Positions 22,859 through 58,529 of a stretch of DNA of 64,000 bases are shown in pieces (position 1 is the stretch's first letter; every line of letters starts with the position of its first letter). Origin of the DNA: an uncultured Gammaproteobacteria bacterium. Its GTDB lineage: Bacteria; Patescibacteriota; Microgenomatia; Daviesbacterales; UBA10151. A program made the translations under genes and the position numbers. The DNA is taken from NCBI GenBank assembly GCA_964393545.1, contig CAYMUB010000059.1, forward strand, positions 4,571 to 68,570, given 5' to 3'. The notes beneath the pieces are model-generated. The model ran no database searches. It had not been told where the DNA came from and saw only the letters and a list, made by a program, of their open reading frames with translations.

Positions 22859-23623
22859 ATGTCCTTGATGATTATCAAAGCAATTAAAACAAGAAAATTT
22901 CTACCTCCTAAAGATAATTTAGATGACCTATTGTCGATGATCAAATTTCTAAAAGAGTATTCGATTGTTGCAGTTACTTCTAAAGTAGTAGCTATTTCTG
23001 AAGGAAGATGTATTCCAGTAGATTCAACTACAAAAGATCAGATTGCCATTTCTGAAGCAGAATGGTATATACCTAGAGAGATTTCTCCTAATGGTCAAAT
23101 TCTAAACACTATAAAAAATAATTTACTGGTTGCTTCCTCTGGTGTAGATGAAAGTAATGGTAATGACTATTATATTCTATGGCCAAAAAAACCAAAAGAT
23201 TCTGCTAAAAAAATTTGGAATTATTTAAAGAATAAATTCAAAATTGAGAATTTGGGAGTTATTATTACTGACTCAAGATTGATTCCCCTACGTAGGGGTG
23301 TAGTGGGTCTTGCTATTTCCTATTTTGGTTTTAAACCGATAAAAGATTATAGAGGGAAAAAAGACATATTTGGTAGAAAATTTGTAATGGAAACTTCTAA
23401 TTTTCCTGATAGTCTAGCTTCAGCTGCAGTTTTAGAAATGGGAGAAGGAGCAGAACAGCAACCCATTGCAGTCATTAATCAAATTCCTAATGTTGAATTT
23501 ATTAATAGAGAATACAAGCCTAAATTGGATGACAATTTTGAGATACCTTTAGAAGAGGATATGTTTTCCCCTTTTCTTACTTCAGTTAAATGGAAGAAGG
23601 GTGGGAGCGGAAAAAATCAATAG
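22859..23623 (+). CDS. CofE/FbiB-like (F420-0:gamma-glutamyl ligase family) protein
   Basis: 254 aa; VAVTSKVVAISEGR... resembles CofE core; function in this context uncertain. Confidence 0.45.
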   Translation: MSLMIIKAIKTRKFLPPKDNLDDLLSMIKFLKEYSIVAVTSKVVAISEGRCIPVDSTTKDQIAISEAEWYIPREISPNGQILNTIKNNLLVASSGVDESNGNDYYILWPKKPKDSAKKIWNYLKNKFKIENLGVIITDSRLIPLRRGVVGLAISYFGFKPIKDYRGKKDIFGRKFVMETSNFPDSLASAAVLEMGEGAEQQPIAVINQIPNVEFINREYKPKLDDNFEIPLEEDMFSPFLTSVKWKKGGSGKNQ

Positions 23624-27696: not shown

Positions 27697-29226
27697 ATGA
27701 ATAAAGTTACAAAGGTTATTTTAATTATTCTAATGGCTGGTTTTTTATACCGCTTGTTATTAACTTCAAATGGAAACTTTCTTTTTAATATGGATAATGC
27801 CCGGGATTTTATTGATGTTAGGGAAATGGTATCTTTGCATAAATTAAGATTAACCGGACCAACCTCGGCAATAGCAGGTTTGTATAATGGTCCTCTTTGG
27901 TATTATCTTTTGGCAGTTCCTTATATTATTAGCGGCGGTGATCCATACGGTGCCATTCTCATGGAGATAATTCTTTGGTTTACTGGAGGATTTTTCTTGT
28001 TGAAGCTGATCAGAGGTTTTAGCGGATGGTTAATAATACCTATAGGTATGGTGTGGATTGCTTCAAACTATATAGTTTTAGCAACTTTGTATTCTTTTAA
28101 TCCTAATCCGGTAACATTACTAACTCCTGTTTTCATTTATGGATTAGTGGAATATTTAAAAGGAAAAAGATTATGGATGATCCTGGTTTGGTTTTTAGCA
28201 GGGGCTTTTTTCAATTTCGAAATGAACTTTGGGCTTTTTACTCCACTAATTATTATTCTTAGTTTAATTTTAGCAAACAAGAAATTACTACTGGATAAAT
28301 TTTTCTGGATTGGCATCTTGATATTTATTCTTACTCTTATGCCTCAACTACTATTTGATTTAAAGCATCAATTTATTATGAGTAAAGCTGTAGTTAGTTT
28401 TTTAGCAGAAAATAAAAGCAGCGGATTTAATCCTTTAAGCAGAGTAACAATAATTGGAAAAAGTTATTATGATGTTTTTCAGGGCACAATGATGAATCAA
28501 AAGATTCTTTCCTGGACCATATTACTTTTGGCAATACCAACAGCCATTTTTTTGTTATCAAAAAAAAGTAAGAATATTATTGTTTTAGTTACCTCACTTT
28601 TTATATTAATTCCATTCATAGGGTATCTAATACTTCCTGTAAGTGTTAATTCTTGGCATTTGGGAGGGTTTGCCTCTGCCTCCTTGATATTAATTGCTTT
28701 TATTATTTATAGGTTTTGGACAATTAATTTTTTAGGCAAAATTATCTCACTAATTTTGTTTATGTCCCTAATTTTTTATCCCATAAGGGAGATGACAAAT
28801 ATTTTTGCCCATGATTTTTTTAAATCTTTGGATCCCTCCTTATTTAAAAATGAAATAGCAGCTATTGATTATGTATACAAATATGCAGATGGTAAAAACT
28901 TTAAAGTCTATACTTATTTGCCTTCAGTCATAGATTATCCTTATCAGTATTTAATCTGGTGGCATGGATTAAAAAAATATGGTTATCTTCCAGAAGATTA
29001 TGCTTATGCCCCAAATAAACCAAAATATATCTCAAGTAAGGAAAGCTTTTCAGCTAGTATAGACTCCCTTAAAAAAAGAGAAAATTACAATTTAGTTTTT
29101 CTAATTTCAGAACCAAATCATAACTATACCCGTTATGGTTGGGAAGGTGATTTTATTAAATTAAAAAACGTGGAAGTACAAATGATTGGACCGCTCAGGA
29201 TCGATATTAGGAAAGAGGTTATCTAA
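27697..29226 (+). CDS. GT-C/ArnT-PMT-like membrane glycosyltransferase paralog
   Basis: 509 aa multi-TM; LTGPTSAIAGLYNGPLWYYLL; C-terminal YGYLPEDYAYAP. Confidence 0.6.
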   Translation: MNKVTKVILIILMAGFLYRLLLTSNGNFLFNMDNARDFIDVREMVSLHKLRLTGPTSAIAGLYNGPLWYYLLAVPYIISGGDPYGAILMEIILWFTGGFFLLKLIRGFSGWLIIPIGMVWIASNYIVLATLYSFNPNPVTLLTPVFIYGLVEYLKGKRLWMILVWFLAGAFFNFEMNFGLFTPLIIILSLILANKKLLLDKFFWIGILIFILTLMPQLLFDLKHQFIMSKAVVSFLAENKSSGFNPLSRVTIIGKSYYDVFQGTMMNQKILSWTILLLAIPTAIFLLSKKSKNIIVLVTSLFILIPFIGYLILPVSVNSWHLGGFASASLILIAFIIYRFWTINFLGKIISLILFMSLIFYPIREMTNIFAHDFFKSLDPSLFKNEIAAIDYVYKYADGKNFKVYTYLPSVIDYPYQYLIWWHGLKKYGYLPEDYAYAPNKPKYISSKESFSASIDSLKKRENYNLVFLISEPNHNYTRYGWEGDFIKLKNVEVQMIGPLRIDIRKEVI

Positions 29227-29638
29227 CAGTAATTAAACGCGTATTACCTTCTTCTTTTTTAATTTTTATCCTGGTGGTATTTTTGGGTAGATATTCTTTT
29301 ATTTTTTCCGCCCATTCAATTAATACAATACTATTAGAATTAGACCAAATCTCTTCCAGTCCTAACTGCTTAATATCAGGTATCTTTTCTAATCTATACA
29401 AATCAATATGAAAAAGTGTCCTATTGCTTTTGGATAATTTATGCTGTCTGATTAAAACAAAAGTAGGAGAAATAATTTTTTCTTTAATTCCCAGCTCTTT
29501 AGCAAAGCCTTGTACGAAAGCTGTTTTACCAGCTCCTAAATCTCCACTTAGAGCGATTACCCCTTTAGTTATTTCTTTTGCTAAATTTGCTGCTATTTTC
29601 TTTGTACTTTTAATTGATTTAGATATATATTGTTTCAT
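29219..29638 (-). CDS. tsaE: tRNA threonylcarbamoyladenosine biosynthesis ATPase TsaE (YjeE)
   Basis: 139 aa; Walker A GDLGAGKT and conserved TsaE core. Confidence 0.85.
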   Translation of the reverse strand: MKQYISKSIKSTKKIAANLAKEITKGVIALSGDLGAGKTAFVQGFAKELGIKEKIISPTFVLIRQHKLSKSNRTLFHIDLYRLEKIPDIKQLGLEEIWSNSNSIVLIEWAEKIKEYLPKNTTRIKIKKEEGNTRLITVR

Positions 29639-34037: not shown

Positions 34038-35117
34038 CTACCCCGAAGTTTGTAAAGACTTAAGTTCAGATTCAATAAATTGGTTTAAGTCCCCATCTAA
34101 AACAGCATCTGTATCCGATGTTTCAACATTTGTTCTTAAATCTTTAACCATATGGTAAGGATGTAGTACGTAGGATCTTATCTGAGTTCCCCAGGAGGCT
34201 TGGGTTGCTCCACCTTTCAACTGTTTGGTTAGTTGTTGTTTTTCTTGTTCTTGTTTTTCCCAAAGCTTACTCAAAAGCAGTTTCATGGCATTTTCCCTAT
34301 TTTGAAGCTGAGATCTTTCTGTTTGAGCTGTGACAGTAAGTCCGGTTGGAATATGTTTAACTCTAACTGCTGTTGATACTTTATTGACATTTTGTCCTCC
34401 TGCACCTCCTGATCTAAAAGCTTCAAACTCTATATCTGATTCATTTATTTCAACTTCTGAAGGGTTAATCACAGGTAAAACTTCCACCAAAGCAAAAGAG
34501 GTTTGTCTTAGTTTATCAGCATTGAAAGGAGATTGTCTAACCAACCTATGTGTGCCTTTTTCTCTTTTCAAATATCCAAAGGCAAAAGGTTCATGGATAA
34601 TCATTGAGACTGTTTTTATGCCTGCTTCTTCACCTGCATCTTCATCAGTCACCTCGTACTTCCAGTCTTGCCTATCAAAATATCTTTGAAACATCCTAAC
34701 AAGCATTGCTGCCCAATCCATGGCCTCAACTCCTCCTGCTCCTGAGTGAACAGATAAGATTGCCTCACTATCATCATGAGGATTAGATAAAAATAACTTT
34801 AATTCTAATTTATCCAAGATTTGTTCTAATTCTTTAACTTCCTTGTTTAAATCTCCCTGCATAGAGGGTTCTCCTGATATTTCCAAAGCATTATTGATTC
34901 TGGTTTCCAAATCAGTCATTGTGGTCAATGTCTTTTGTTTATTTGACAGCTGACGGCTGATAGCTGAGGACTCTTGAGGATTATTCCAAAACCCCTCTTT
35001 CATAGTCTGAGCTTCAAATTCCCTGATTTCAGTTTGCAACTTATCCTGATCAATCGCCTGAGTAACTTTCCCAAACCTGTCATTTAAATCCTTTAATTCA
35101 TTTTGTATTTCTTCCAT
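34038..35117 (-). CDS. prfB: Peptide chain release factor 2 (no programmed frameshift)
   Basis: 359 aa; SPF tripeptide (RQSPFNA) and GGQ motif ([13 protein letters not shown]); single uninterrupted ORF. Confidence 0.88.
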
Positions 35118-35226: not shown

Positions 35227-36471
35227 TTAATAAAATGGCGGTGGGATAGTAAGTAATTGTTTTGTATTATTCTGTTTATCGTTTATAAATTTTTTTATAC
35301 GGGCAGTTATTTTATAAGGAAATTTACTGCTAAGAAAAAGTGGAACATAATTAGGAATAATTATTTTTCTTACCACAATAGCCGAGTTTACAGAGAAATC
35401 TTTCACAAACACTGCTTGCTTTTGGCTTATTATCTCCTGAGTAAGAGAAGAATAAATTGTTCCAGGACTAGTTTTTTTAAAAAAATCTTTTTTGTAATTC
35501 CTACTATCTACTATCTCCCCTTTCAATAAGAAGGCAATGTCTTTGAGAGGTTTTTCCTGAAGCCAATAATTTTTAGTTTCATGAAAAAAGTAATTAAGAG
35601 AAAAGGATTCTGATGTTTCTTCTGAAGGAATCCCTATCTTATAATTTCTACTTTTAACATATAATTTAAAAGCTTCCAGAATAGCTTGAGTTATTGCTAT
35701 TGTAAGATTAGTATGAGTCTTCAATCCAATTGTAACAACCGAATTTTCATCGAAAAGCAGAATACCAATAGTATAAACAGGCAGATCGTATGAAAAATCA
35801 AGTACAACTAGGTATATTTTATAGTTTTGTTTTAAAGATTGGATGAGTTCTTTTAATTCCCTTGATTGTTCGAAATCTATAATTTTTGGCGAAGTTTTTG
35901 TCAAATAGTAAAGCATAAAATTATCCCGTTCTATTACTTCTAATAGACCCGCAAGGAGTGCAGAACTTTCATCAAAATTTGCTGCAGCACCAGTACTTAT
36001 TGGAATTCGGAGTTTAGGTTCATTCGGTGCAAACAAATAGTGTGAATACACAAATTGAGTAGGAATAAGTACCCGTTTTTTCTCACTTTGGGAATAGCTT
36101 TCTGTCCATCTGAATTTTGAGAAAGCGGTGTCTGTTTCTCTTTCGAAAATACTAAATATAGATGGTGAGATACCGGTTCTTGGTTGTTGTAGTAATATTG
36201 TTGCTTCTTTTTGTGTGTAGGTAATTGATAGCCACTCAATCGCTTCCATTACTGCTTTAATGAATGCTCCTTTAAGAGAAGTGTCGTTTGCAGAGCTAAA
36301 GCTATTAGTATCTCCTCTTCTATACTCAATACTTACGATAAAAATATTTTTTTTCTCAGAGAGTGGAAAAATTTCTACAAAAGCCTCTTGTATTATTCCC
36401 TTTCGTTTTAATGAGTGGTAGAGTTTTCTTACTTTTTCGTACATATCAATATTAGATAAAATAGTCAGCAT
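35227..36471 (-). CDS. YcaO-domain protein (ATP-dependent amide-backbone activating enzyme: cyclodehydratase/thioamidation family)
   Basis: 414 aa; canonical YcaO ATP-binding motif ISTGAAANFDESSALLAGLLEVIERD and C-terminal Pro-rich tail ...IPPPFY*. Confidence 0.85.
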   Translation of the reverse strand: MLTILSNIDMYEKVRKLYHSLKRKGIIQEAFVEIFPLSEKKNIFIVSIEYRRGDTNSFSSANDTSLKGAFIKAVMEAIEWLSITYTQKEATILLQQPRTGISPSIFSIFERETDTAFSKFRWTESYSQSEKKRVLIPTQFVYSHYLFAPNEPKLRIPISTGAAANFDESSALLAGLLEVIERDNFMLYYLTKTSPKIIDFEQSRELKELIQSLKQNYKIYLVVLDFSYDLPVYTIGILLFDENSVVTIGLKTHTNLTIAITQAILEAFKLYVKSRNYKIGIPSEETSESFSLNYFFHETKNYWLQEKPLKDIAFLLKGEIVDSRNYKKDFFKKTSPGTIYSSLTQEIISQKQAVFVKDFSVNSAIVVRKIIIPNYVPLFLSSKFPYKITARIKKFINDKQNNTKQLLTIPPPFY

Positions 36472-36991
36472 TCCTAAAGAGAATTTTTTTATTTTTATTT
36501 GGTGATTGTAAAGACCTTTCTATGCTGCTATTAATTCGTTGGGGATTACTAATAAATTCTGCTATCGGGATCGAAGAAAGCGATGAAGTATGAGGAAATT
36601 TTATTTCCTTATCGTCAATATGAAAACAAATGTAAGAGTAGTCACTTTTAATAATTTTTTTAGGTATAAAAATATCGTTGTAAACTTGAAGATCCTCGAT
36701 ATTACAGTTAGGTTTTTGTTTATACCTATTTAAAATACCTTGTTCTAATCCAGTGGGTTCTAATTTTTTGCCCCACCGAAGATTTATTGCCACTCCCTTT
36801 CCATAGTTGAACTCGGGTTTTAGCTTTTCTATAAATAGTTTTGACTTGGGTGCATTACAAATAGGAGAGAAGTCAGTTTGGAGCATCAGAAAAAGAAGTT
36901 TGATTAAATGAAGAGCATTCTTATTAGTTTTTGATTTTTTTGTATATGTCTGTGTTACAAAGGCTTTTAAAAACTCTCGAAGTGCTGTCAT
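36452..36991 (-). CDS. Hypothetical protein, candidate YcaO partner (translationally coupled; RRE/E1-like or TfuA-like role unproven)
   Basis: 179-aa ORF overlapping YcaO start by 20 nt and 21 nt downstream of the 155-aa ORF; no family recognised. Confidence 0.5.
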   Translation of the reverse strand: MTALREFLKAFVTQTYTKKSKTNKNALHLIKLLFLMLQTDFSPICNAPKSKLFIEKLKPEFNYGKGVAINLRWGKKLEPTGLEQGILNRYKQKPNCNIEDLQVYNDIFIPKKIIKSDYSYICFHIDDKEIKFPHTSSLSSIPIAEFISNPQRINSSIERSLQSPNKNKKILFRNADYFI

Positions 36992-37012
36992 GATTTTATA
37001 GGCAAGGAGGTT

Positions 37013-37480
37013 TTATGTACAACAGCAGATTCCACGTTTTTCACGGCTAACATATGATTCGCTTTCTTCAATAGGGCCATTGCCAACACTGCTGTTACTG
37101 CTGTTACTGCTGTTACTTATTGTCCAGTCTATAAGAGGAGTATTGGCATATATTTTTTCTACTAATGCAGGTTTTCCAAGTCTGGTAACTGCAAACCACT
37201 CAAGCGGTACCATAAATGTAAAGGCTGCTTGTACTGCCCGCTCTATAAATGGCTTAAGTCTTCGTGGAATAGTAGTTCCCTGTCCTTCCATAAATGCAAC
37301 CTGATTTTGTGCGCGTTGATGGGTGATTCCCAGGAGGACCACTCCAGCTTGACCAAAACCTCTCTCGTTAAGTGTCCGCAATATTTCGGTAGAGCTATTA
37401 GGAGTTCGATCATGTTTTATGAGTTGAGCCTGATACTGTTCAATAGCAGCTCGGGTGAGCGAACGAAATGGTTCAGTCAT
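37013..37480 (-). CDS. Hypothetical 155-aa protein with Ser/Asn repeat and Cys-rich C-terminus (...SNSSNSSNSSVGNGPIEESESYVSREKRGICCCT*); candidate YcaO substrate/precursor
   Basis: First gene of the three-gene operon; locally GC-richer than neighbours; C-terminal low-complexity plus CCC tail. Confidence 0.5.
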   Translation of the reverse strand: MTEPFRSLTRAAIEQYQAQLIKHDRTPNSSTEILRTLNERGFGQAGVVLLGITHQRAQNQVAFMEGQGTTIPRRLKPFIERAVQAAFTFMVPLEWFAVTRLGKPALVEKIYANTPLIDWTISNSSNSSNSSVGNGPIEESESYVSREKRGICCCT

Positions 37481-37504
37481 ACCTATTAATTATAACACTG
37501 TTTA

Positions 37505-37532
37505 ATTCTAAGAGTTTTATATCGACTGGCAA
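37505..37532 (-). promoter_or_regulatory. Putative promoter of the YcaO operon (minus-strand TTGCCA-16 nt-TAGAAT)
   Basis: Reverse complement of 37505-37532 gives TTGCCA...TAGAAT ~25 nt upstream of the 37480 start. Confidence 0.3.
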
Positions 37533-37682
37533 TTGTCCTTGGGTTTAGAACATCAGCCTAGGGGAGTACTTATTTTGTCATTCTCATAATGCAGCATTCA
37601 CTATATGAAAAACAAGTTTAAAGAACTAAAAAAATTGCAGTACGGAAAATTAGTTTAAACCTCGTAAAGAAAATGGTAGAAT

Positions 37683-39174: not shown

Positions 39175-39489
39175 ATGGTTTTATATATTAATACGAAAGA
39201 GCAAAAATCCATATCAGTTTCTTTAAAAAAAGACCTGCCTGAGGGTAAGCAGGTGGTGGCAGAATTATCTGAAATAAATGAATATGGTTCACAAGTTTTA
39301 TTACCTTTGATATTTAAACTGCTAAGAACTACTAACTCCAAACTACAAACTCTTCAAGGAATTGAGGTGGAAACCGGATCAGGATCTTTTACCGGACTTA
39401 GGGTTGGAGTCTCTGTTGCTAATGCTTTAGGGTTTTCTTTAAACACTCCAGTTAATGGGAAAAAAATAGAAACAGAGCTGGTATACTAG
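39175..39489 (+). CDS. tsaB: TsaB/YeaZ-like mini-protein (N-terminal domain only)
   Basis: 104 aa; IEVETGSGSFTGLRVGVSVANALGFSL is the classic TsaB/YeaZ motif. Confidence 0.65.
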   Translation: MVLYINTKEQKSISVSLKKDLPEGKQVVAELSEINEYGSQVLLPLIFKLLRTTNSKLQTLQGIEVETGSGSFTGLRVGVSVANALGFSLNTPVNGKKIETELVY

Positions 39490-40520: not shown

Positions 40521-41603
40521 ATGAAGGCTATCATACCAACAGGTGGGCGTGGCACTAGGATGCGCCCATTAACATTTTCTACCAATAAACACTTTATTCC
40601 AGTTGCCAACAAACCATTAATTTTTTATCCAATTGAAACAATTGCTGATGCCGGGATTAAAGAAGTGGGAATTACCTACAATCCTGGTGGACTGGAAGAG
40701 GCAAAATCATACCTGGGAGATGGATCCTCATGGGGACTTTCTATAACTTATATTTTACAGGAAAAACCTGCAGGTTTGGCTAACATTGTGGAGGTTTGTG
40801 AAGAATTTCTTGATGGTGACTCGTTTGTTTTTCATCTTGGTGACAACATCTTTGTTGACGGAATAAAAAAGCAGGTGGAATATTTTGAGAAAGAAAAACC
40901 AAACGGTTTGGTAACCATGATTCATCATCAGGAAAACAGAAGAATGGGAGTACCATACTTTAATGATCAGGGAAGACTTATTAAATATGTAGAAAAGCCG
41001 GAAAATCCACCGCATGATTTTGCGGTACCGGGTGTTTATTTTGCCGATAATTCGTTTTTCAAATGTTTCAAAGGAAAAAATCAGATAAAACCATCCCAAA
41101 GAGGAGAATATGAAATCCCAACAGCTTTTCAGTGGTTAATTGATAATGGTTTTAGGGTAGATGTTATGGAATATAAAGGTAAATGGCTGGATCCGGGAAA
41201 ATTTGACGACTGGATTGAGGCTAATCAGTATATTTTGGAAAATAAACTAAAAGAGAGTATAGAATCTAAAGTTGACTCTTCATCCAAGATAGACTTAAAG
41301 GTTTCATTAGGAAAAGACTGTACAGTTATTAACTCAAAAATTAAAGGTCCGTCAATAATAGGCGATAATGTAGTTATTACTAATTCAGAGGTTGGGCCCT
41401 TAACATCTGTTGCAGATAACTGTGAGATTGTAGGGAGTAAGGTGTCGAATAGTGTTTTAATGAGTGGGGTAAAAGTGTTAAATGTGAGAGAGCACCCAGT
41501 TGAAAATAGTTTAATTGGTACAGATTCTGAGGTTATAGGTGCAGATGGCAGAGGGACTGTTACTTCCTTGTTTGTAGGAGAGAAGTGTAAAATTCAATTA
41601 TGA
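40521..41603 (+). CDS. rmlA: Glucose-1-phosphate thymidylyltransferase-like sugar nucleotidyltransferase with C-terminal left-handed beta-helix
   Basis: MKAIIPTGGRGTRMRPLT nucleotidyltransferase signature; hexapeptide-repeat C-terminus; followed by rmlBCD. Confidence 0.75.
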   Translation: MKAIIPTGGRGTRMRPLTFSTNKHFIPVANKPLIFYPIETIADAGIKEVGITYNPGGLEEAKSYLGDGSSWGLSITYILQEKPAGLANIVEVCEEFLDGDSFVFHLGDNIFVDGIKKQVEYFEKEKPNGLVTMIHHQENRRMGVPYFNDQGRLIKYVEKPENPPHDFAVPGVYFADNSFFKCFKGKNQIKPSQRGEYEIPTAFQWLIDNGFRVDVMEYKGKWLDPGKFDDWIEANQYILENKLKESIESKVDSSSKIDLKVSLGKDCTVINSKIKGPSIIGDNVVITNSEVGPLTSVADNCEIVGSKVSNSVLMSGVKVLNVREHPVENSLIGTDSEVIGADGRGTVTSLFVGEKCKIQL

Positions 41604-42604
41604 AGATTTTAGTTACCGGTGGTGCGGGTTTTATTGGCTCAAATTTTATTCACTACTGGTTAGAAAACCATCCTGATGATCAAGTGGTAAACCTGGATGC
41701 TTTAACCTACGCCGGGCATTTGGAGTCTTTAAAAGATATTGAGGGGAATCCAAACTATCAATTTATAAAGGGGGATATTACAAATCTTCAGGATGTAGAA
41801 AAAGCCATGCAAGGGATTGATACTGTGGTCCATTTTGCAGCTGAGTCACATGTTGATAGGTCAGTTATAGATCCTTTTGTATTTGTTAAAACAAATGTTT
41901 TAGGGACGGCAATTTTGCTTGAAGAAGCTCTAAATGCCGGAGTTAAAAGGTTTCATCATATTTCAACAGATGAAGTATTCGGTCATTTGGGAAAAGATGA
42001 CCCACCATTTAACGAAGAAACAAAGTACGCTCCTAGAACTCCTTACTCTGCTTCTAAAGCAGGATCAGATTACCTAGTCAAAGCGTATTATGAAACCTAT
42101 AAGTTGCCAATAACGATTACAAATTGTGCTAATAATTTTGGCCCTTTCCAAGATCCGGAAAAGTTGATCGCCCGTTTTATTACAAATCTTTTGGAAGGTA
42201 AAAAGGTTCCCTTAATGGGTCAAGGTGAAAATATCAGATCTTGGATTCAAGTTGAAGATCATAATAGAGGAGTAGAAAAAGTTTTACAGGATGGGAGGGT
42301 AGGGGAAACGTATTGTATTGGTGGAGAGGAAAAAACCAACTTAGAAGTCACCAAAAAAATACTGGAAATTTTAGGTCAGGATGAAACTTTGATTGAATAT
42401 GTTGAGCACCGGTTAGGTCATGACTTTAGGTATGCAATTGATGATGGGAAATTAAAGACATTAGGTTGGAAACCACAATATGATTTTGGGAAGGGTTTAG
42501 AAGAAACTGTTAACTGGTATAAAAATAATGAATGGTGGTGGAAACCTTTAAAGCTGGATAGACCAAATGTGGATAGGATAGCCCAGAAAGGATATCAAAA
42601 GTAA
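41600..42604 (+). CDS. rmlB: dTDP-glucose 4,6-dehydratase
   Basis: MKILVTGGAGFIGSNF, extended SDR, 334 aa, operon context. Confidence 0.85.
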   Translation: MKILVTGGAGFIGSNFIHYWLENHPDDQVVNLDALTYAGHLESLKDIEGNPNYQFIKGDITNLQDVEKAMQGIDTVVHFAAESHVDRSVIDPFVFVKTNVLGTAILLEEALNAGVKRFHHISTDEVFGHLGKDDPPFNEETKYAPRTPYSASKAGSDYLVKAYYETYKLPITITNCANNFGPFQDPEKLIARFITNLLEGKKVPLMGQGENIRSWIQVEDHNRGVEKVLQDGRVGETYCIGGEEKTNLEVTKKILEILGQDETLIEYVEHRLGHDFRYAIDDGKLKTLGWKPQYDFGKGLEETVNWYKNNEWWWKPLKLDRPNVDRIAQKGYQK

Positions 42605-43152
42605 TGGATGAATCTGTTCAAAAAACTGCCATTGAAGGGTTACTTATTTTAAAAAGACTAACTCATAAAGATGACAGAGGTTTTTTTAAAGAAATATTTC
42701 ATATTGATGAAATAGAAGAAACTTTAGGAATTCAGTTTAAAGGTTTGCAAATGAACCATGCTTTTTCAATGCCCAAGGTTTTAAGAGGAATTCATGCGGA
42801 AAACTGGAATAAAATAATCTATCCTGTTAATGGTAAAGTATATGTGGCAATTGTTGATATCAGACCAGATTCCCCTACCTTTGGAAAATTTGAAACTTTT
42901 ACTATGAGTGATGAAAATAGAATTGGGTTGTTTATTTCCAAAGGTTTAGCAAACTCTTACTGTATAACTGGTGAAGAGGCTGTTGACTATATCTATTTAG
43001 TAGATAGCTATTACGATGGCTCAGATCAAAAAGCAGTTGCTTATGATGATCCTGATTTAAATATTGAGTGGCCAATCAAAGATCCAATTATTTCTGATAG
43101 AGATAAAAATAATCCTAAGCTTCGTGATCTGTTTCCCGAAAAATTCCCATGA
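42604..43152 (+). CDS. rmlC: dTDP-4-dehydrorhamnose 3,5-epimerase
   Basis: 182-aa cupin with RmlC-like motifs (RGIHAENWNKII..., NSYCITGEEAVDYIYL). Confidence 0.8.
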   Translation: MDESVQKTAIEGLLILKRLTHKDDRGFFKEIFHIDEIEETLGIQFKGLQMNHAFSMPKVLRGIHAENWNKIIYPVNGKVYVAIVDIRPDSPTFGKFETFTMSDENRIGLFISKGLANSYCITGEEAVDYIYLVDSYYDGSDQKAVAYDDPDLNIEWPIKDPIISDRDKNNPKLRDLFPEKFP

Positions 43153-44033
43153 AAAAAATATTAGTTTTTGGAGGTAGCGGCTTGGTTGGATCTAAGTTTA
43201 TTGATATTCACAAAACTGAATTTGAAATTAATGCTCCTGATGCAGCTGCTGTGGACATTTTAAACAAAGATCAGATATCAAAAATAGTTGAAGAATTTAA
43301 CCCGGATTCAATTGTTAATTTTGCAGCCTATACTCAAGTAGAAGAGGCAGAGAATCAAAAAGATGATCAAAATGGAATTTGCTTTCAGGTAAATGCAATT
43401 GGAGTAAAAAATATTGCAGCAGTTTCAAAAGATTTTGCCAAACACTTCATCCACATCTCTACAGAATATGTATTTGATGGCACAAAAGAAAATAGTCCAT
43501 ATGTAGAAGAAGACAAGCCAAATCCCATCAATTGGTATGGACAGACTAAATTTAAAGGTGAACAATTTGTTCTGGAAAGTGGCAGTAAGGCAGTAATTGT
43601 TAGATTATCAATGCCCTTTTCATCCCATTATAATTTAAAAAAAGATGTAGCCAGATTCTTTTTAGAGCAATTAAAATCAGGAAAACAGATTAAGGCAGTA
43701 GAAGATCAAAGAATTACACCTACTTTAGTTAATGATGTAGCAGATGGTTTAAGAGTATTACTGGAAAATCAAAGTACTGGAATGTATCATATTAGTAGCA
43801 GGGATTCTGTTAGTCCTTTAGAGTTTGTCAAAACTATTGCTGAAACTTTTCTTCTTAACTATTCCTTAATTTCATCTCTAAAATTGGATGAATTTAATAA
43901 AAACAAAAAGGCAAAATTATTAAAGTATTCCTGGTTAAACCCAACAAAATTTGAGAGAATGTTTGGAGATCAGATTCTACATACGGTCGAAGAAGGCTTG
44001 GCAATTTTCAAACAGGAGATTGACCAAATTTAG
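43149..44033 (+). CDS. rmlD: dTDP-4-dehydrorhamnose reductase
   Basis: 294-aa SDR, MKKILVFGGSGLVGS, position after rmlC. Confidence 0.75.
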   Translation: MKKILVFGGSGLVGSKFIDIHKTEFEINAPDAAAVDILNKDQISKIVEEFNPDSIVNFAAYTQVEEAENQKDDQNGICFQVNAIGVKNIAAVSKDFAKHFIHISTEYVFDGTKENSPYVEEDKPNPINWYGQTKFKGEQFVLESGSKAVIVRLSMPFSSHYNLKKDVARFFLEQLKSGKQIKAVEDQRITPTLVNDVADGLRVLLENQSTGMYHISSRDSVSPLEFVKTIAETFLLNYSLISSLKLDEFNKNKKAKLLKYSWLNPTKFERMFGDQILHTVEEGLAIFKQEIDQI

Positions 44034-44057
44034 TAAATTAGATATAGTAGTTCAAAC

Positions 44058-45071
44058 ATGGTAAACAAAAAAGCGTTTATTACTGGGATTTCGGGTCAAG
44101 ACGGCTCATATTTAACAGAAGTTTTACTGGATAAAGGATATGAAGTAGCGGGATTAGTTAGAAGGAATGCTGGTTTGGATATGGGAAACATTAATGCTCT
44201 AAGGGAGGAAGTAAAAATATACTATGGTGATCTTCAATCAGCAGAATCTATAGCCTTAGCATTATTGGATTTTAAACCGGATGAAATTTATAATTTAGCC
44301 TCATTGTCATCACCTTTAGCATCATTTTCAGATAAGTTTGCCACCATTATGGTAACAGGTGTTGGAGCTTTGCATGTTTTTGAAAGAGCTAAACAAATTG
44401 TACCTGAGGCACGGATATATCAGGCTTCTACATCAGAAATGTTTGGAGCTCCGACTCAATTTCCACAAAATGAAGATACTCCTTTGAAACCAACTAATCC
44501 TTATGCAGCAGCTAAGGAATTTGCTCACCGCATGGCGGTAATTGCCAGAAGTGATAAAAAGCAACCACAATTTATCTCCTGCGGAATTTTATTTAATCAC
44601 GAAAGTCCTAGGCGTGGTCTAAACTTTGTAACAAGAAAAATTACTGCAGCTGTTGCCTGTATTAAAAATAATAAAAAGGAAGGAATTCCTTTAAATGAAA
44701 TAGGTGAGCCGATTGTCAGGGACGGAAAGGTAAAATTAGGAGATCTTGGTGCAAAAAGAGATTGGGGATATGCAAAGGATTATGTAGAAGCTATGTGGCT
44801 AATGTTGCAGCAGGAAAAAGCAGATGATTTTGTAGCTGCAACAGGAGAAGTTCACACTGTTGAGGAATTTGCTAAAGAAGCTTTTGAGGTCGCCGGACTG
44901 AATTTTAAAGACTTTGTAATTACCGATCCACATTTTGTTCCCCCAGTTCAAACAGGACCACTTTGCGGTGATGCAACTAAGGCAAAAAAGGTTCTAGGAT
45001 GGGAATCGAAAACAAAATTTAAAGATTTAGTGAAAATTATGGTTCACGCGGATCTTGCGAAGTTCTCCTAG
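44058..45071 (+). CDS. gmd: GDP-mannose 4,6-dehydratase
   Basis: KKAFITGISGQDGSYLTEVLLDKGYEV N-terminus and GILFNHESPRRG motif are diagnostic of Gmd. Confidence 0.88.
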   Translation: MVNKKAFITGISGQDGSYLTEVLLDKGYEVAGLVRRNAGLDMGNINALREEVKIYYGDLQSAESIALALLDFKPDEIYNLASLSSPLASFSDKFATIMVTGVGALHVFERAKQIVPEARIYQASTSEMFGAPTQFPQNEDTPLKPTNPYAAAKEFAHRMAVIARSDKKQPQFISCGILFNHESPRRGLNFVTRKITAAVACIKNNKKEGIPLNEIGEPIVRDGKVKLGDLGAKRDWGYAKDYVEAMWLMLQQEKADDFVAATGEVHTVEEFAKEAFEVAGLNFKDFVITDPHFVPPVQTGPLCGDATKAKKVLGWESKTKFKDLVKIMVHADLAKFS

Positions 45072-46272
45072 TTTCTACTACAATCGAACAATGAAGAGAG
45101 TTTCAGTTGTTCTTCCCACATTTAATGAAAAGGCCAACATTGAAAGTACTGTAGAAAAAGTTTTGCAGCAAGAAAAAGAGCTGTCTGGTTGGGAAATACA
45201 TATCGTGATCGCTGATGATGTCAGATCTACTGACGGACTAGAACAAGTTGTAAAAAAGATGTCACCTGAAAAGAATATTCATTATATAAAAGTTGAACCA
45301 GGGTTAGGGTTAGGGTTGATAGAAGGACATAAATATGCTCTTGATCATTTACATCCAGATATCTTGGCGCAGTTAGATGCAGATGGGCAGGTAGTGCCTG
45401 ATGTCTTAGTAAGACTAGTTAAAGCGATTGAAGATGGATATAGTTTGGTAATAGGATCAAGATTTGTTGAAGGTGGGAAAAACCAACTGTCTTTTGCAAG
45501 AAGACTTTTCACGATGGGTGCATCAGTATTTTGTAGGCTTATGATAGGTCCATGGGACATTAAAGAGGTTACAAATTCTGCCCGTGCTTTTACACCAGCT
45601 CTTTTTAAGAAAATTAATTTAGAAAGACTCCCTTGGAGAGAAAATTCTTTTATTATTCAACCGGCGTTTTTACATGAGGCAATTTTAGCCGGGGCAAAGT
45701 ATAAAGAAGTACCTTTGATTTTCAAAAACAGACAAGAAGGGTATTCAAAGAATAAAGTTTTCAATTACACATATGATGTAATTACTTATTGTCTTGATGT
45801 AAAGCTTAACAGCTTAGGGATAAATATTCCATTTTTTAGAATTACCAGAAGAGCAAAAACTTTAGTTAAATTTAGTTTAGTAGGGGTAATGGGGACACTG
45901 GTTGATTTTTTCTTTTATAAATTCTTTATCAATTTTCTTGCTTTGGCACCAGCTACTTCAAAAGGATTCTCTGCGGAAATTGCCATCATGAATAATTTTT
46001 TTCTAAATAATTTTTGGATATTTAAATACAGAAAAACAAAAACTAATTTTTGGCAGAAACTGGGAATTTTCAATTTAGTTTCATTGGGGGGATTAATTAT
46101 TGCAGTATTGATAGTCAAATTGTTACATCACACTTATGGTGATGGGTTTATTTTGGTAGGATCAAAAAGCATTGCTTATAATAACTTTTACTTTTTTGCT
46201 ACCATTCCGCCTGTAATGATTTGGAATTTTACTGTAAATCACCTTATTACTTGGCGGCATAAGGAAGATTAA
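45055..46272 (+). CDS. GT2 polyprenol-phosphate glycosyltransferase (DPM1-like) fused to GtrA-like C-terminal TM domain
   Basis: VVLPTFNE...IADDVRSTDG...DADGQ GT2 motifs; C-terminal 4-TM GtrA-like segment. Confidence 0.75.
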   Translation: MRSSPSFYYNRTMKRVSVVLPTFNEKANIESTVEKVLQQEKELSGWEIHIVIADDVRSTDGLEQVVKKMSPEKNIHYIKVEPGLGLGLIEGHKYALDHLHPDILAQLDADGQVVPDVLVRLVKAIEDGYSLVIGSRFVEGGKNQLSFARRLFTMGASVFCRLMIGPWDIKEVTNSARAFTPALFKKINLERLPWRENSFIIQPAFLHEAILAGAKYKEVPLIFKNRQEGYSKNKVFNYTYDVITYCLDVKLNSLGINIPFFRITRRAKTLVKFSLVGVMGTLVDFFFYKFFINFLALAPATSKGFSAEIAIMNNFFLNNFWIFKYRKTKTNFWQKLGIFNLVSLGGLIIAVLIVKLLHHTYGDGFILVGSKSIAYNNFYFFATIPPVMIWNFTVNHLITWRHKED

Positions 46273-47438
46273 TTAAAAGGTGATAAGTTAGGAATTGGGG
46301 CGGTATTTGATAGCAGAAAATTCTGGGTATATAAATAAATTGCCAAAGCAATAATTGGCAAAATAATTTTAAATTCCCTGGATGTTAAAATCTTCTCAAA
46401 GGCAATTAGTAAAAAAGGAAATATTGGTAAAGTGTATCTGCTAATATCCCGGTGAGCAACAAATGCGGAGGCTATCAGATAAGTAAGTACAAAAAATGCC
46501 AGTGGATATATTCTCTTTTGCCACAGGGTAACGGCCCCCAAAAATCCAAGCATAAAAACATAAACAATATCCTCAAGCCAGATATCACCTACCCAGAATT
46601 GATGTTTATTAAATACCTGGAAAGGTGGAAAGGTTAAATGAATATTATCACCTGAATGAAAGTATGCCCAAAAATCCCCAAAAGTATGAGAGTACAGATA
46701 AAATATTCCCAAAAGTCCTAAAGGGATAGAAAGAAACGGAAAATACCTTAAATGATTTAAAAATGCCTTTTTAATACCTAATGTTTTTGACTCCAAATAA
46801 TATTTGTAATGGACAAATATTGCCAAAGAGATAAAAAGCAGAATTCCCGGGGGTCTGGTTAGTTGAGCAAGTAGTCCCAAAAAAGCAGATAAATATAAAT
46901 CCATCTGTTTGTAATTTTTTTCAAACTTTAAGAAAAAATAAAGAGCAGAAATTACAAAAAATATAAACAAAGGCTCGGCAGATCCAACAGAATGTACAAT
47001 TACCCACCTGGCAGGCAAAATTAAAAACAATGCAGACAAAAATAAAGGATAGTGAGTTAATTTAAAATCCCTGACTAAAAAGTAAAAAGCCCAAACTGCC
47101 AAAAGGGTGGATAATAAAGTAACAAATAACATTGATTTTAAATATCCCAAAACAGGTGCAAACGTGCTTATTACTAAAGAATATCCAGGGAAGTGGGAGG
47201 CAAAATACACTGGGTCTTGAGATTGAGGTAAAGAGGTGATTAGACCGGGATTATAATAACTTTTGGCTATAACAATATACTCTAATCCATCAAAATTCCG
47301 GTAAATTGTGGAAAATCCTTCTTTAAAAGATAATCCCCAAAAGCTAGGTAAAGACAACAAGTGTGGTAACCAAACAAGAAAAGTAATAATTATTGTTAGT
47401 GCAGCTAGCAAACTTAAATTTTTAATGGTTTTACCCAT
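46269..47438 (-). CDS. Polytopic membrane protein, GT-C-like (mannosyltransferase/DUF2029-like)
   Basis: 389 aa, ~10 TM helices, family not firmly assigned. Confidence 0.45.
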   Translation of the reverse strand: MGKTIKNLSLLAALTIIITFLVWLPHLLSLPSFWGLSFKEGFSTIYRNFDGLEYIVIAKSYYNPGLITSLPQSQDPVYFASHFPGYSLVISTFAPVLGYLKSMLFVTLLSTLLAVWAFYFLVRDFKLTHYPLFLSALFLILPARWVIVHSVGSAEPLFIFFVISALYFFLKFEKNYKQMDLYLSAFLGLLAQLTRPPGILLFISLAIFVHYKYYLESKTLGIKKAFLNHLRYFPFLSIPLGLLGIFYLYSHTFGDFWAYFHSGDNIHLTFPPFQVFNKHQFWVGDIWLEDIVYVFMLGFLGAVTLWQKRIYPLAFFVLTYLIASAFVAHRDISRYTLPIFPFLLIAFEKILTSREFKIILPIIALAIYLYTQNFLLSNTAPIPNLSPFN

Positions 47439-47455
47439 ACTTTAATCATTCTAGC

Positions 47456-49642
47456 ATGACAAGGTTTGGCTATGCTACACTTTATAACATGAAACTTGAA
47501 CAGCTTTCAGTTTTTTTCCCATCTTTTAATGAAGAAGGTAATATTGAACTTACAGTCAGCAAAGCAATCAAGATTTTAGAGCAATCAGGCCTGCAATATG
47601 AAATTATTATAGTTAATGATGGTTCAACAGACAAAACCGCATTTGTTGCAGAAAATTTATCTAAAAGAAACTCAAAAGTTAGAGTTATCAATCATCCTCA
47701 AAACCTGGGTTATGGAGAGGCCTTAAAGTCAGGTTTCTATAATGCCAAATATGACACTATTGTCTATACAGATGGGGATGGTCAATTTGACTTTGCTGAA
47801 GTTACTAAATTCTTAGAAAAAATACAAAATTTTGATTTGGTAATAGGCTACCGTATCAAAAGACAAGATCCTTTTCTTAGGAGATTATTTGGTAAAGGTT
47901 GGAGATTATCTTTATTAATTTTCTTTGGACTAACTTTAAAAGATGTGGATTGTGGTTTTAAAATGATTAAAAGATCAGTACTTAAGAAAATTCCTCACCT
48001 GGAATCTCAAAGAGGAGCTATGATTAATGCTGAAGTTGCAATTAAAGCTAAGAAATTTGGTTTTAAAGTAGATCAAGTTGGAGTAAACCATTATCCCCGT
48101 ATTTCAGGTAAACCTACTGGAGCAGGTGTTAGGGTGATTATTAAATCTTATCTTGACTTGCTAAGGTTGTGGTGGAAACTTAAAGATCAGAAAATGCTAT
48201 TTATAGCTTTAATCTTAATCTTAGGTTTAGCAGCTTTCTTAAGACTCTACCAAATTCCTGGATATATGACTTTTTTAGGGGATGAGGGTAGGGATGCTTT
48301 AATTATGAAGAAAATATTATCCGGTGATTTGCCTATGATTGGTCCACCCACTTCTGTTGGGAATATCTATTTAGGGCCGCTTTATTACTACATGATGTTT
48401 TTATCCATGGCTCCAACAAATTTAAACCCTATTTCTGCTGCAATTATGAATGCGCTGATTGGGATTTTAATTGTGGCCTTAGTTTATTATTTAGGAAAAA
48501 TCTGGTTTGGTAGGATTGGGGGGATGGTTGCTTCCTTTCTTTATGCTATATCACCAGTGAATATTATCTACTCCCGTTCTTCCTGGAATCCCAACCCGGC
48601 CCCCTTTTTTGCATTACTTGGAATGTTTAGTCTTTATAGGGTACACAAAACAGGTAATTTCTTGTGGCTGGTGCTAACAGGTTTTGCTTTTGCTGCAGCA
48701 GCACAAATGCACTATTTATCCTTAATACTAATTCCAATAGGAGTAATTTTGTTGATATATGAGGTCTGGGCTAGAAAAAATAGTCACATGAATTCTAAAA
48801 ATCTACCCAAGGGGATCATGTTAGGGATGATAACTTTTGCATTAGTAATGTCACCTTTAGTTATTTTTGATTTTAAACATAATTTCTTAAACTATAGAGC
48901 AATTACTGAACTCTTGTCTGGAAATGGTGCTGTTAAAGCAGCTGTTTTCTCAAATTTAGCAAGAATCCCATCTCTTTTTTCCTATAACTTAATTGGTAGA
49001 TATATGACAGGAGAGAACTATATTTTACAAATATTACTTTCCCTGCTTTTGCTCTTACCCTTTTTGTTATTGAGAACCTGGTCAATACTGGCTTTAGGAG
49101 TATGGCTTTTAGTAGGATTGTTTGGAGTCTCTTTTTACCAGCAAGATATATATGATCACTATTTAGGTTTTATGAATCCAGTCCCTTTTTTACTTTTGGG
49201 GTCTATTACTACAATTAAAATAATACCCCGTAAATTTGTAGCCGCTTTAATGATAACTTTAGTTCTCTCTTTAACTTATGTTAATTTTCAAAAAAGCCCT
49301 TTAAGGTTTCCCCCGAATAATCAATTGAAAAGAACAATTGATGTAGCAAAATTTATTATTAACGCATCACAAAATAAGGACTTTAATTTCGCATTAATTG
49401 CAAAAAGCAACTACGATTCTGCCTATCAATTTTATTTAGATAAACTTGGTCATACACCAAAACAAGTCCCATTTGATAAAACCGGTCAATTGTTTGTAGT
49501 TTGTGAAGATGAAAGTTGTGACCCAACTCATAATTCAAAATATGAAATAGTAGCTTATGGTTGGTCAAAGATAGATTGGATGAAAGAATTTGCGGGTGTT
49601 AAAATTTACAGACTTGTTCCTAATCCAACTGGTAAACCATGA
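47456..49642 (+). CDS. Bifunctional fusion: N-terminal GT2 (DPM1-like polyprenol-P-sugar synthase) + C-terminal GT-C/ArnT-like membrane transferase domain
   Basis: 728 aa; N-terminal VNDGSTD...TDGDGQ GT2 motifs; C-terminal multi-TM with MIGPPTSVGNIYLGPLYYYMMFL motif shared with the ArnT-like paralogs. Confidence 0.7.
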   Translation: MTRFGYATLYNMKLEQLSVFFPSFNEEGNIELTVSKAIKILEQSGLQYEIIIVNDGSTDKTAFVAENLSKRNSKVRVINHPQNLGYGEALKSGFYNAKYDTIVYTDGDGQFDFAEVTKFLEKIQNFDLVIGYRIKRQDPFLRRLFGKGWRLSLLIFFGLTLKDVDCGFKMIKRSVLKKIPHLESQRGAMINAEVAIKAKKFGFKVDQVGVNHYPRISGKPTGAGVRVIIKSYLDLLRLWWKLKDQKMLFIALILILGLAAFLRLYQIPGYMTFLGDEGRDALIMKKILSGDLPMIGPPTSVGNIYLGPLYYYMMFLSMAPTNLNPISAAIMNALIGILIVALVYYLGKIWFGRIGGMVASFLYAISPVNIIYSRSSWNPNPAPFFALLGMFSLYRVHKTGNFLWLVLTGFAFAAAAQMHYLSLILIPIGVILLIYEVWARKNSHMNSKNLPKGIMLGMITFALVMSPLVIFDFKHNFLNYRAITELLSGNGAVKAAVFSNLARIPSLFSYNLIGRYMTGENYILQILLSLLLLLPFLLLRTWSILALGVWLLVGLFGVSFYQQDIYDHYLGFMNPVPFLLLGSITTIKIIPRKFVAALMITLVLSLTYVNFQKSPLRFPPNNQLKRTIDVAKFIINASQNKDFNFALIAKSNYDSAYQFYLDKLGHTPKQVPFDKTGQLFVVCEDESCDPTHNSKYEIVAYGWSKIDWMKEFAGVKIYRLVPNPTGKP

Positions 49643-50376
49643 AAAAACTTTCTGTAGTTATTCCTTCATATAATGAGGCAGCTAATCTAAAAAAAGGAGT
49701 ATTAAATCAAGTAGGCGACTATTTTTTCAAAAGTAAGATAGATTATGAAGTTTTGGTGGTAGATGACGGGTCTTTGGATGAGTCAGTAAAACTGATAAAA
49801 AAGTATACTTTAAAAAATAAAAACTTTAAGTTAATCCAAAATAGCCATGGAGGAAAAGCAATAGCAGTATTAACTGGCATGGAGAAATCCAGTGGAGAAG
49901 TAGTTTTGTTTACTGACATGGATCAGGCAACTCCTATTAATCAATTAGCCAAATTCATTCCAAAGTTTGAAGAAGGATATGACATAGTTATTGGATCAAG
50001 GGATGGTAGAAAAGGAGCACCCATTATTAGGAAGTTATCTGCGTGGGGATTTTCAATCCTCCGGAGGATCATTTTAGGCTTGCCTTTTAAAGACACCCAA
50101 TGTGGTTTTAAGGCTTTTTCTAAAGCTTCAATTAACAAGATTCTTCCTGAAATTAAAAGCGAATGGGGAGTAGTTCATTTTCAAGGAGGAGCAGTGAATG
50201 CTGGATTTGATGTAGAGCTTTTATATCTGGCCAAAAAATATGGTTTTAAGATTGCAGAGATAGAGGTAGAGTGGAGTTATGTTGATACTGAAAGAGTACA
50301 AGTGGTTAAAGATGCCCTGGCAGCCATTTATGATATGTTAAGAATTAGAATAAATGATTTCTCAAATAAGTATTAG
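49639..50376 (+). CDS. GT2 family polyprenol-phosphate glycosyltransferase (soluble DPM1-like)
   Basis: 245 aa; VIPSYNE, VVDDGSLDES, DMDQATP motifs. Confidence 0.75.
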   Translation: MKKLSVVIPSYNEAANLKKGVLNQVGDYFFKSKIDYEVLVVDDGSLDESVKLIKKYTLKNKNFKLIQNSHGGKAIAVLTGMEKSSGEVVLFTDMDQATPINQLAKFIPKFEEGYDIVIGSRDGRKGAPIIRKLSAWGFSILRRIILGLPFKDTQCGFKAFSKASINKILPEIKSEWGVVHFQGGAVNAGFDVELLYLAKKYGFKIAEIEVEWSYVDTERVQVVKDALAAIYDMLRIRINDFSNKY

Positions 50377-50381
50377 GATAA

Positions 50382-51899: not shown

Positions 51900-51900
51900 C

Positions 51901-58525: not shown

Positions 58526-58529
58526 AATT

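Follow-up and report, generated by a model that had tools for sequence, protein, structure and literature searches.

A putative azoline-forming YcaO operon with a cysteine-tailed candidate substrate and an apparently undescribed partner domain

The stretch of DNA analysed here, 64 kb of contig CAYMUB010000059.1 from an uncultured bacterium (hereafter the window), carries on its minus strand a compact operon of three genes. They code for a 155-amino-acid (aa) candidate substrate ending in SREKRGICCCT (37013..37480), a 179-aa partner protein with an 'LRWG' domain (36452..36991), and a 414-aa SagD-like YcaO enzyme predicted to be an azoline-forming cyclodehydratase (35227..36471). With 21 nt between the stop codon of the 155-aa gene and the start of the 179-aa gene, and with a 20-nt overlap of the latter with the start of ycaO, the YcaO is translationally coupled to the partner and to the CCC-tailed protein, and these three co-directional open reading frames (ORFs) lie as a first-pass annotation of the window had described them. 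The three genes are best read as a self-contained post-translational modification cassette that is related to the thiazole/oxazole-modified microcin (TOMM) and linear azol(in)e-containing peptide (LAP) systems and has a different recognition module. Judged from the sequence comparisons given below, the CCCT tail of the 155-aa protein is the likely site at which the operon introduces azolines, and the 179-aa protein the likely partner.

Azoline formation is favoured over thioamidation since SagD is the best match of the enzyme, its C-terminus is Pro-rich, the Cys triplet of the candidate substrates is invariant, and a SagB-type dehydrogenase is encoded in one related locus (L002/L025) and a fragment resembling one in another (L046), and also because no TfuA was found among the ORFs scanned. 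Of the 'RiPP-like or protein-thioamidation' system (RiPP, a peptide made on ribosomes and then modified post-translationally) that the first-pass annotation had envisaged, the outline of a Cys-tailed protein, a partner and a modifying YcaO is thus retained, whereas thioamidation is disfavoured.

Cysteine-triplet tails in a rare clade

Six distinct loci represent the clade, namely the window, L001, L002 (= L025), L047, L049 and L050, with L046, L048 and L051 being fragments. In all six, wherever enough sequence is available, a protein adjoining the YcaO ends in CCC[T/S] or CCCNVGY, so that the Cys-rich C-terminus that had been singled out in the 155-aa protein as linked to the YcaO recurs beside every clade YcaO. 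The tails read RGICCCT in the window, NGICCCT in L047, DDCCCT in L001, PGCCCS in L002/L025 and DGCCCNVGY in L046, each followed by the stop codon, and NNCCCT in L050, where the contig ends. The residues preceding the triplet vary (RGI, NGI, DD, NN, PG, DG) and form no conserved cleavage motif. The triplet itself is the only feature common to all substrates. The fetched sequence, 616 kb, contains 1,281 ORFs of 80 aa or more. Seven of these have CCC within their last eight residues, all of them beside clade YcaOs, where about 0.04 would be expected by chance, and the 155-aa ORF is the only CCC-tailed one in the window. At its end it shares the six residues GICCCT with the L047 substrate, whose gene likewise lies immediately upstream of the (partner-)YcaO gene. 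The codons for Cys152-Cys153-Cys154-Thr155 (37016..37027, minus strand) are accordingly predicted to encode the core, i.e., the site of modification. In five of the six substrates (those of the window, L001, L047, L050 and L046) there is in addition a weak [ST]-S-Y or P-S-Y motif 6-12 residues before CCC, which may have a role in recognition.

Outside the window, in the five other loci, substrate bodies and partner domain are paralogous, as indicated by the BLASTP match of the 179-aa window protein to the L002 substrate (E = 3e-11) and by the L047 and L050 substrates, which lay outside the profile used and score E = 3e-26 and 1e-23, respectively. These paralogous substrates consist of a charged, probably coiled-coil N-terminal region, the domain, a low-complexity linker of 17-30 residues and the tail, the linkers of the substrates being often rich in Ser, Pro or Asp, and substrate lengths range from 155 to 264 aa. 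In the window, the Ser/Asn-rich linker before the tail contains a perfect 9-bp tandem repeat of 3.3 copies encoding NSSNSSNSS (37088..37117, minus strand), which could let the length of the linker vary by slippage.

The body of the 155-aa protein stands apart. It has no match among phages and plasmids or in Pfam and NCBIfam, and as to homology with NHLP/Nif11 leaders (NHLP, nitrile hydratase leader peptide), which are related to the nitrile hydratase alpha subunit or to Nif11, no NCBIfam model matches the window, L047 or L001 substrates and no Pfam match was found among those scanned. That the 155-aa protein might be a divergent member of the partner-domain family was considered and rejected, as the hhalign probability is 3-5%, only the CCCT tail aligns, and hmmsearch with the body was negative. 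What it has in common with the other substrates is only the design of a linker followed by GICCCT. The protein gives the impression of a CCCT tail grafted onto an unrelated or newly arisen protein. A hidden short precursor was likewise rejected, since no other small Cys/Ser/Thr-rich ORF was found in or beside the operon. The co-encoded precursor with a Cys/Ser/Thr-rich C-terminal core that is typical of TOMM/LAP systems is thus represented here by the 155-aa protein, which is atypical for such a precursor in being protein-sized and in having a core of four residues.

The system is extremely rare and seems to be confined to uncultivated low-GC bacteria, possibly of the candidate phyla radiation (CPR). 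A word-indexed search of 5.8 billion protein clusters retrieved for the YcaO no more than two relatives, each 37% identical to it, and for each of the two small operon proteins nothing except the protein itself. An exhaustive phmmer search with the 179-aa protein against 1.84 billion representatives yielded eight proteins in total, and 185,579 species genomes together with the metagenomes of the Joint Genome Institute (JGI) contained one further copy of a known locus and otherwise conventional LAP clusters at 22-28% identity. Neither the partner domain nor CCC-tailed substrates were found described in the full-text literature searched, in Pfam (2025 copy) or in NCBIfam (June 2026).

The nearest genomic relatives of the YcaO reside in metagenome-assembled genomes of Saccharibacteria and Dojkabacteria. 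The idea that these share the architecture of the window was rejected, because in L004, L005 and L026 the LAP clusters are of the ordinary kind, have precursors of 47-67 aa and lack the LRWG domain. The Saccharibacteria and Dojkabacteria genomes have in common a conserved classical LAP cluster (L004, 7666..10548; L005, 7667..10557) that comprises a 47-48-aa precursor (...NCNQTSCSHTGTNSSACYG...), a YcaO for which no E1-like partner is apparent, a SagB dehydrogenase and a 235-aa protein which by eye is a putative C39-type peptidase, with an ABC-F gene adjoining.

The YcaO enzyme and its partner domain

The 414-aa protein matches the YcaO family of Pfam (PF02624) over profile positions 9-323 of 325 with E = 9e-35 and 121 bits against a cutoff of 25.7, and the hidden Markov model (HMM) search proposed with the first-pass annotation therefore bears out its enzyme assignment. 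Its top NCBIfam model is TIGR03604 (SagD, thiazole/oxazole maturase) with 118 bits, as compared to 68 bits for the McrA-thioamidation model, and among relatives with a solved structure the azoline heterocyclases TruD, MusD and LynD are nearest to it, coming before the thioamide-type MJ1094. The motif ISTGAAANFDESSALLAGLLEVIERD (residues 158-183; 35923..36000, minus strand) and M75-EAIEW-80 constitute the conserved acidic ATP/Mg motifs. In the alignment of the window protein with P0002 and P0003, E76, E79, S159, T160, G161, E178, E181, R182 and D183 are invariant (ExxE, ExxERD), and a role of these residues in binding ATP and Mg would be expected from what is known of YcaO structures. Both ISTGAAANFDESSALLAGLLEVIERD and the terminal IPPPFY that had been read from the sequence before are indeed found in the enzyme. 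The latter is a Pro-rich, PxPxP-type tail (35230..35247, minus strand) which is conserved throughout the clade, all six YcaOs ending in PPPF[FY], APPFF or PSPFF, and PxPxP is reported to be canonical for azoline-forming YcaOs (PMC12338566). Within the clade the enzymes are 32-57% identical, so that the family must be old and diverged, as opposed to a single recent element. With the nearest LAP YcaOs the identity is 22-28%.

The 179-aa protein has no match in Pfam or NCBIfam and appears to define a domain that has not been described previously. Its hallmark is the motif L71-R72-W73-G74 (36770..36781, minus strand), with W73, G74 and K76 invariant in the alignments, which also reveal the conserved motifs A[IV]xLRWGxK, DYxYICxH...IxFPH, L..P and xDYW. 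A second signature, C122-x-H124 ... F-P-H134 (36590..36628, minus strand), is specific to partner-type copies: Cys122, His124 and His134 are invariant in eight out of eight of these, be they stand-alone or fused, and the motif is lost in the substrate-type copies (His134 being kept in the L002 substrate) as well as in the third copy of L001, a tail-less 230-aa extra copy of the domain with a large insertion (2454..3146, minus strand). A short ORF after the L046 substrate (1246..1443) has an EPTYEEQ-like motif and scores only E = 0.84 against the domain profile.

A 12-member profile of the partner found no match among PDB sequences or in Pfam. Structure prediction with AlphaFold2 from the single 179-aa sequence was unusable, with a mean predicted local distance difference test (pLDDT) of 43, whereas a 9-sequence alignment gave a pLDDT of 83.5 and a predicted template modelling score of 0.75. 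The resulting model comprises a long helical segment at the N-terminus and then a two-layer alpha+beta sandwich which is weakly frataxin-like in its fold, and Foldseek found no match to the model among 350,000 PDB chains or in BFVD.

With respect to the position of the domain, it is fused to the N-terminus of the YcaO in P0002/L001, P0007/L047, P0010/L049 and P0011/L050, and stands alone directly upstream of the YcaO gene in the window and in L002 (3-nt gap); the L051 partner is probably also adjacent to a YcaO, the downstream ORF being cut by the contig end. The C-terminal DYW motif of the domain is continued by the YcaO in the fusions and by linker and tail in the substrates. That fusions have been found repeatedly argues strongly for partner and YcaO acting as one unit. 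A small partner working with the YcaO, as had been proposed for the window, is linked to the enzyme in every relative and fused to it in four sequences. The families suggested for this partner, i.e., E1-like/ThiF, RRE/PqqD (RRE, RiPP recognition element) or TfuA, found no support in HMM searches, profile or fold and were rejected on sequence and fold: the operon has neither an E1-like (C protein) nor an Ocin-ThiF-like (F protein) partner with an RRE winged helix, neither of its two small proteins matches TfuA (PF07812), and no TfuA was found among the window ORFs scanned, which were all but a few.

In general descriptions of azoline-forming YcaOs, a short leader is bound by the RRE of a partner that is E1-like or Ocin-ThiF-like. 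With the TOMM/LAP systems (SagBCD, McbBCD; LynD/TruD/PatD) the clade shares a SagD-subtype YcaO with a Pro-rich C-terminus, a partner encoded separately or joined to the YcaO at its N-terminus, a substrate whose C-terminal end carries a Cys/Ser/Thr core, and an optional dehydrogenase of the SagB/McbC type. It differs from them in that the partner is an unrelated alpha+beta domain, that the substrates are proteins of the size given above and not peptides, with the four-residue core at the extreme C-terminus, and that no protease or exporter is present. The clade thus appears to swap the E1-like/Ocin-ThiF RRE module for an unrelated, undescribed domain, a paralog of which serves in most members as substrate scaffold as well. 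If true, this would be a third class of YcaO partner and, with paralogous domains pairing with each other, a new principle of substrate recruitment.

YcaOs that thioamidate intact proteins are not known to have a PxPxP-type tail. Like the methanogen enzymes acting on McrA and that of Escherichia coli acting on uL16, the clade YcaOs have a full-length, folded substrate and no machinery for leader cleavage; the former, however, put thioamides on conserved housekeeping proteins without a dedicated co-encoded substrate, whereas here azolines are predicted on a dedicated co-encoded tail. So far, the only modification known from YcaOs that act on whole proteins is the thioamide, in McrA and uL16 (PMC13063428), and the link of E. 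coli YcaO with ribosomal protein S12, on which the first-pass annotation had drawn, has been superseded by thioamidation of uL16 (PMC13063428). The E. coli type is stand-alone with no co-encoded substrate (PMC13063428), in contrast to the coupled window enzyme. A folded, protein-like leader engaged by an azoline-forming YcaO through protein-protein contacts has a parallel in the proteusin-like NHLP precursors and their YcaO MprC (PMC12455567). The NHLP leaders, however, have 81 residues and are read via a canonical RRE and an L(X)4L motif (PMC12455567), whereas the scaffold here is larger, has a different fold, is a partner paralog in five of six loci and involves no RRE. Finally, DapY, the daptide YcaO, likewise bears PxPxP and acts at the very C-terminus of its substrate, but forms an imidazoline only after other enzymes have turned the terminal Thr into a diamine (PMC12338566); the diamine-forming enzymes are absent here, and the conserved feature is the Cys triplet.

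Predicted chemistry and competing explanations

In the proposed mechanism, the 414-aa YcaO would act as an ATP-dependent cyclodehydratase with the 179-aa protein as obligatory partner in place of the E1-like/RRE domain of LynD and TruD, a position suggested by the relatives that carry the partner fused to the N-terminus of the YcaO. The partner would bind the YcaO, as the fusions imply, and recruit the substrate, in most loci probably through a pseudo-homodimer of the enzyme-borne and substrate-borne paralogous domains. The flexible Ser/Asn-rich linker of the 155-aa protein may then deliver Cys-Cys-Cys-Thr to the active site, where each Cys thiol would attack the preceding backbone carbonyl to give up to three contiguous thiazolines (Cys152, Cys153 and Cys154), and Thr155 possibly a terminal methyloxazoline. 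Each azoline would lower the mass by 18 Da, the shift of -20 Da named for azolines in the first-pass annotation being that of an azole. By tblastn no SagB/McbC dehydrogenase was found in the window, and the product would hence be expected to stay at the azoline level, as thiazolines and not thiazoles. The sister locus L002/L025, in which a SagB-family peptide dehydrogenase directly follows the YcaO (TIGR03605, 126.6 bits against a cutoff of 78.4), would by contrast make thiazoles; in L046, a fragment preceding the substrate resembles the C-terminal end of SagB by eye.

We further consider it possible, albeit doubtful, that the system is dedicated to capping a folded cytoplasmic protein at its C-terminus with three to four contiguous thiazoline/oxazoline rings, the pseudo-homodimer of paralogs replacing the RRE and the cap serving together with the Cys/His/His residues in metal binding or redox chemistry, in which case it would not be a peptide natural-product pathway. 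If true, this could be the first case of a full-length protein that receives azolines at its C-terminus. A four-residue core on a portable tail could also serve for enzymatic C-terminal labelling of proteins. The specialised chemistry of such uncultivated low-GC bacteria is almost unexplored.

Several points weigh against azoline formation on the CCCT tail as set out above. Chemistry, modified residues, mode of recruitment and the product's fate and function are all inferred. The window YcaO falls short of the trusted cutoff of the SagD model TIGR03604 (118 as against 219 bits), as do all six clade YcaOs and the YcaOs of the CPR LAP clusters. The body of the window substrate lacks the paralogous domain, and the tail alone ties the 155-aa protein to the family; recruitment through a pseudo-dimer is therefore not obviously applicable to it and is weakest for the window. 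The six distinct loci are mostly located on short contigs, so that the conservation statistics rest on few independent observations, and a peptidase, exporter or immunity gene is conserved in none of them. Ring formation at the terminal Thr is uncertain because modification of a C-terminal residue had, by 2025, been demonstrated for none of the characterised YcaOs (PMC12338566).

Contiguous thiazoline/oxazole compounds made by non-ribosomal peptide synthetases, such as thiangazole and the tantazoles, resemble the product that would be expected if the operon made a classical secreted RiPP instead, with the 155-aa protein as a long leader from which a generic protease frees a short, CCCT-derived poly-azoline bioactive peptide. 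Such a peptide, which we regard as rather unlikely, would call for the same enzymology as modification of the intact protein; a dibasic Lys-Arg does precede the window tail, and long folded leaders are known for azoline YcaOs, e.g., the 81-residue leaders of NHLP precursors (PMC12455567). It is the lack of a conserved protease, exporter or immunity gene that favours a modified protein over a released peptide, and the variable residues before the triplet as well as the size of the substrates, which with their folded domains and long, charged N-terminal regions are far beyond any known leader, argue in the same direction. A different backbone chemistry, i.e., formation of a thioamide or amidine on the tail or on an unlinked housekeeping protein, with the CCC neighbour acting in an accessory role or as a carrier of sulfur or metal, has little to recommend it by our estimate. 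It would be consistent with the known intact-protein substrates of YcaOs being thioamidated (PMC13063428), with the sub-cutoff SagD score, with an operon that lies among translation and division genes directly upstream of prfB, and with a weakly frataxin-like partner that has a conserved Cys/His/His motif. However, neither the operon nor the window ORFs scanned yielded a TfuA, the thioamide-type model is far behind SagD in score, the azoline dehydrogenase SagB in L002/L025 makes sense only with azoline products, and the six loci do not share the housekeeping context.

The explanation to which we give the least credit is that of a coincidence, with the 155-aa ORF being an unrelated orphan or a non-functional gene, its CCCT a chance occurrence or a motif for metal or lipid attachment, and the real substrate encoded elsewhere. 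It is true that the body of the protein is without a homolog in the collections searched and without the domain of the five other substrates, and that its gene has the highest GC content in the window. But the chance expectation for CCC tails contrasts with one such tail at every clade locus, the GICCCT end shared with L047 occurs at the same position immediately upstream, GC at third codon positions (GC3) is far below the overall GC of the gene, as for a real gene in an AT-rich genome, and the operon offers no candidate other than the 155-aa protein. Azoline formation on the tail of this protein remains the reading that we favour.

Genomic setting of the operon

Twenty-five nt upstream of the start codon of the 155-aa gene lies a promoter-like site, TTGCCA-16 nt-TAGAAT (37505..37532, minus strand), which with 10 of 12 matching positions is the top-scoring one of the region. 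The promoter proposed here by the first-pass annotation is plausible as the best regional match, but is not significant, as the region contains 10 such sites compared to 11.3 expected from shuffling. No terminator-like site was found between ycaO and prfB (34038..35117), which follows 109 nt downstream on the same strand, so that the operon does lie directly upstream of prfB, as had been noted. The prfB gene, coding for release factor 2, is one unbroken ORF of 359 aa with no sign of the programmed +1 frameshift that is present in this gene in many bacteria.

On the same strand, prfB, ftsE, ftsX and an M23/PcsB-like gene are the neighbours of the operon, and this flank as a whole codes for Lon, H+-PPase, GreA, class I LysRS, SerRS, SecA, GlnA, TsaE, the M23/PcsB-like protein, FtsEX and PrfB. 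On the other flank, a divergent DUF2079 gene is followed by a gene for a CAP-domain protein and then, at about 40-60 kb of the window, by a large Rml/GT2/PMT_2/YfhO glycan locus. The description of the operon as embedded in a surface-glycosylation locus is hence appropriate for the DUF2079 side and the glycan locus beyond it, but not for the same-strand side.

The window has a low G + C content of 34.6%, contains no rRNA, and is ordinary chromosome. Together with its genes and with Saccharibacteria and Dojkabacteria as hosts of the nearest YcaO relatives, the low GC suggests a CPR-like bacterium. Compared to the 50 window genes, ycaO (z = -1.0) and the 179-aa gene (z = -1.15) are within the range of GC contents, whereas the 155-aa gene is the highest of all (0.432, z = +2.7) with a GC3 of only 0.30 (z = +1.6), which points to amino-acid composition and not to foreign codon usage. 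The claim that parts of the operon are compositionally distinct and were acquired is therefore not upheld, and horizontal acquisition was rejected in view of a composition inside the range of the window and core genes on the flanks. A defence system was rejected too, there being no PADLOC matches, and alignment of the YcaO against viral contigs gave no matches.

Some neighbours of the sister loci do not recur elsewhere, namely a secreted cupredoxin-like protein encoded divergently upstream of the system in L002 (733..1134, minus strand) and a YafQ-family toxin gene beside the partner gene in L048 (46..312). In the window itself, the glycan locus (40521..59993) codes for RmlA/B/D, several GT2 proteins, GtrA, several PMT_2, YfhO and PTPS_related membrane proteins and a Polysacc_synt flippase, together with several membrane proteins of 500-600 aa without a family match. 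A 104-aa ORF at 39175..39489 matches only positions 30-84 of the TsaD/TsaB family and would be an unusually short TsaB-like protein, with TsaE being encoded at 29219..29638. Further genes of the window code for a class I (archaeal-type) lysyl-tRNA synthetase (12528..14093), a membrane H+-pyrophosphatase (3266..5272) and a protein similar to F420-0:gamma-glutamyl ligase (22859..23623).

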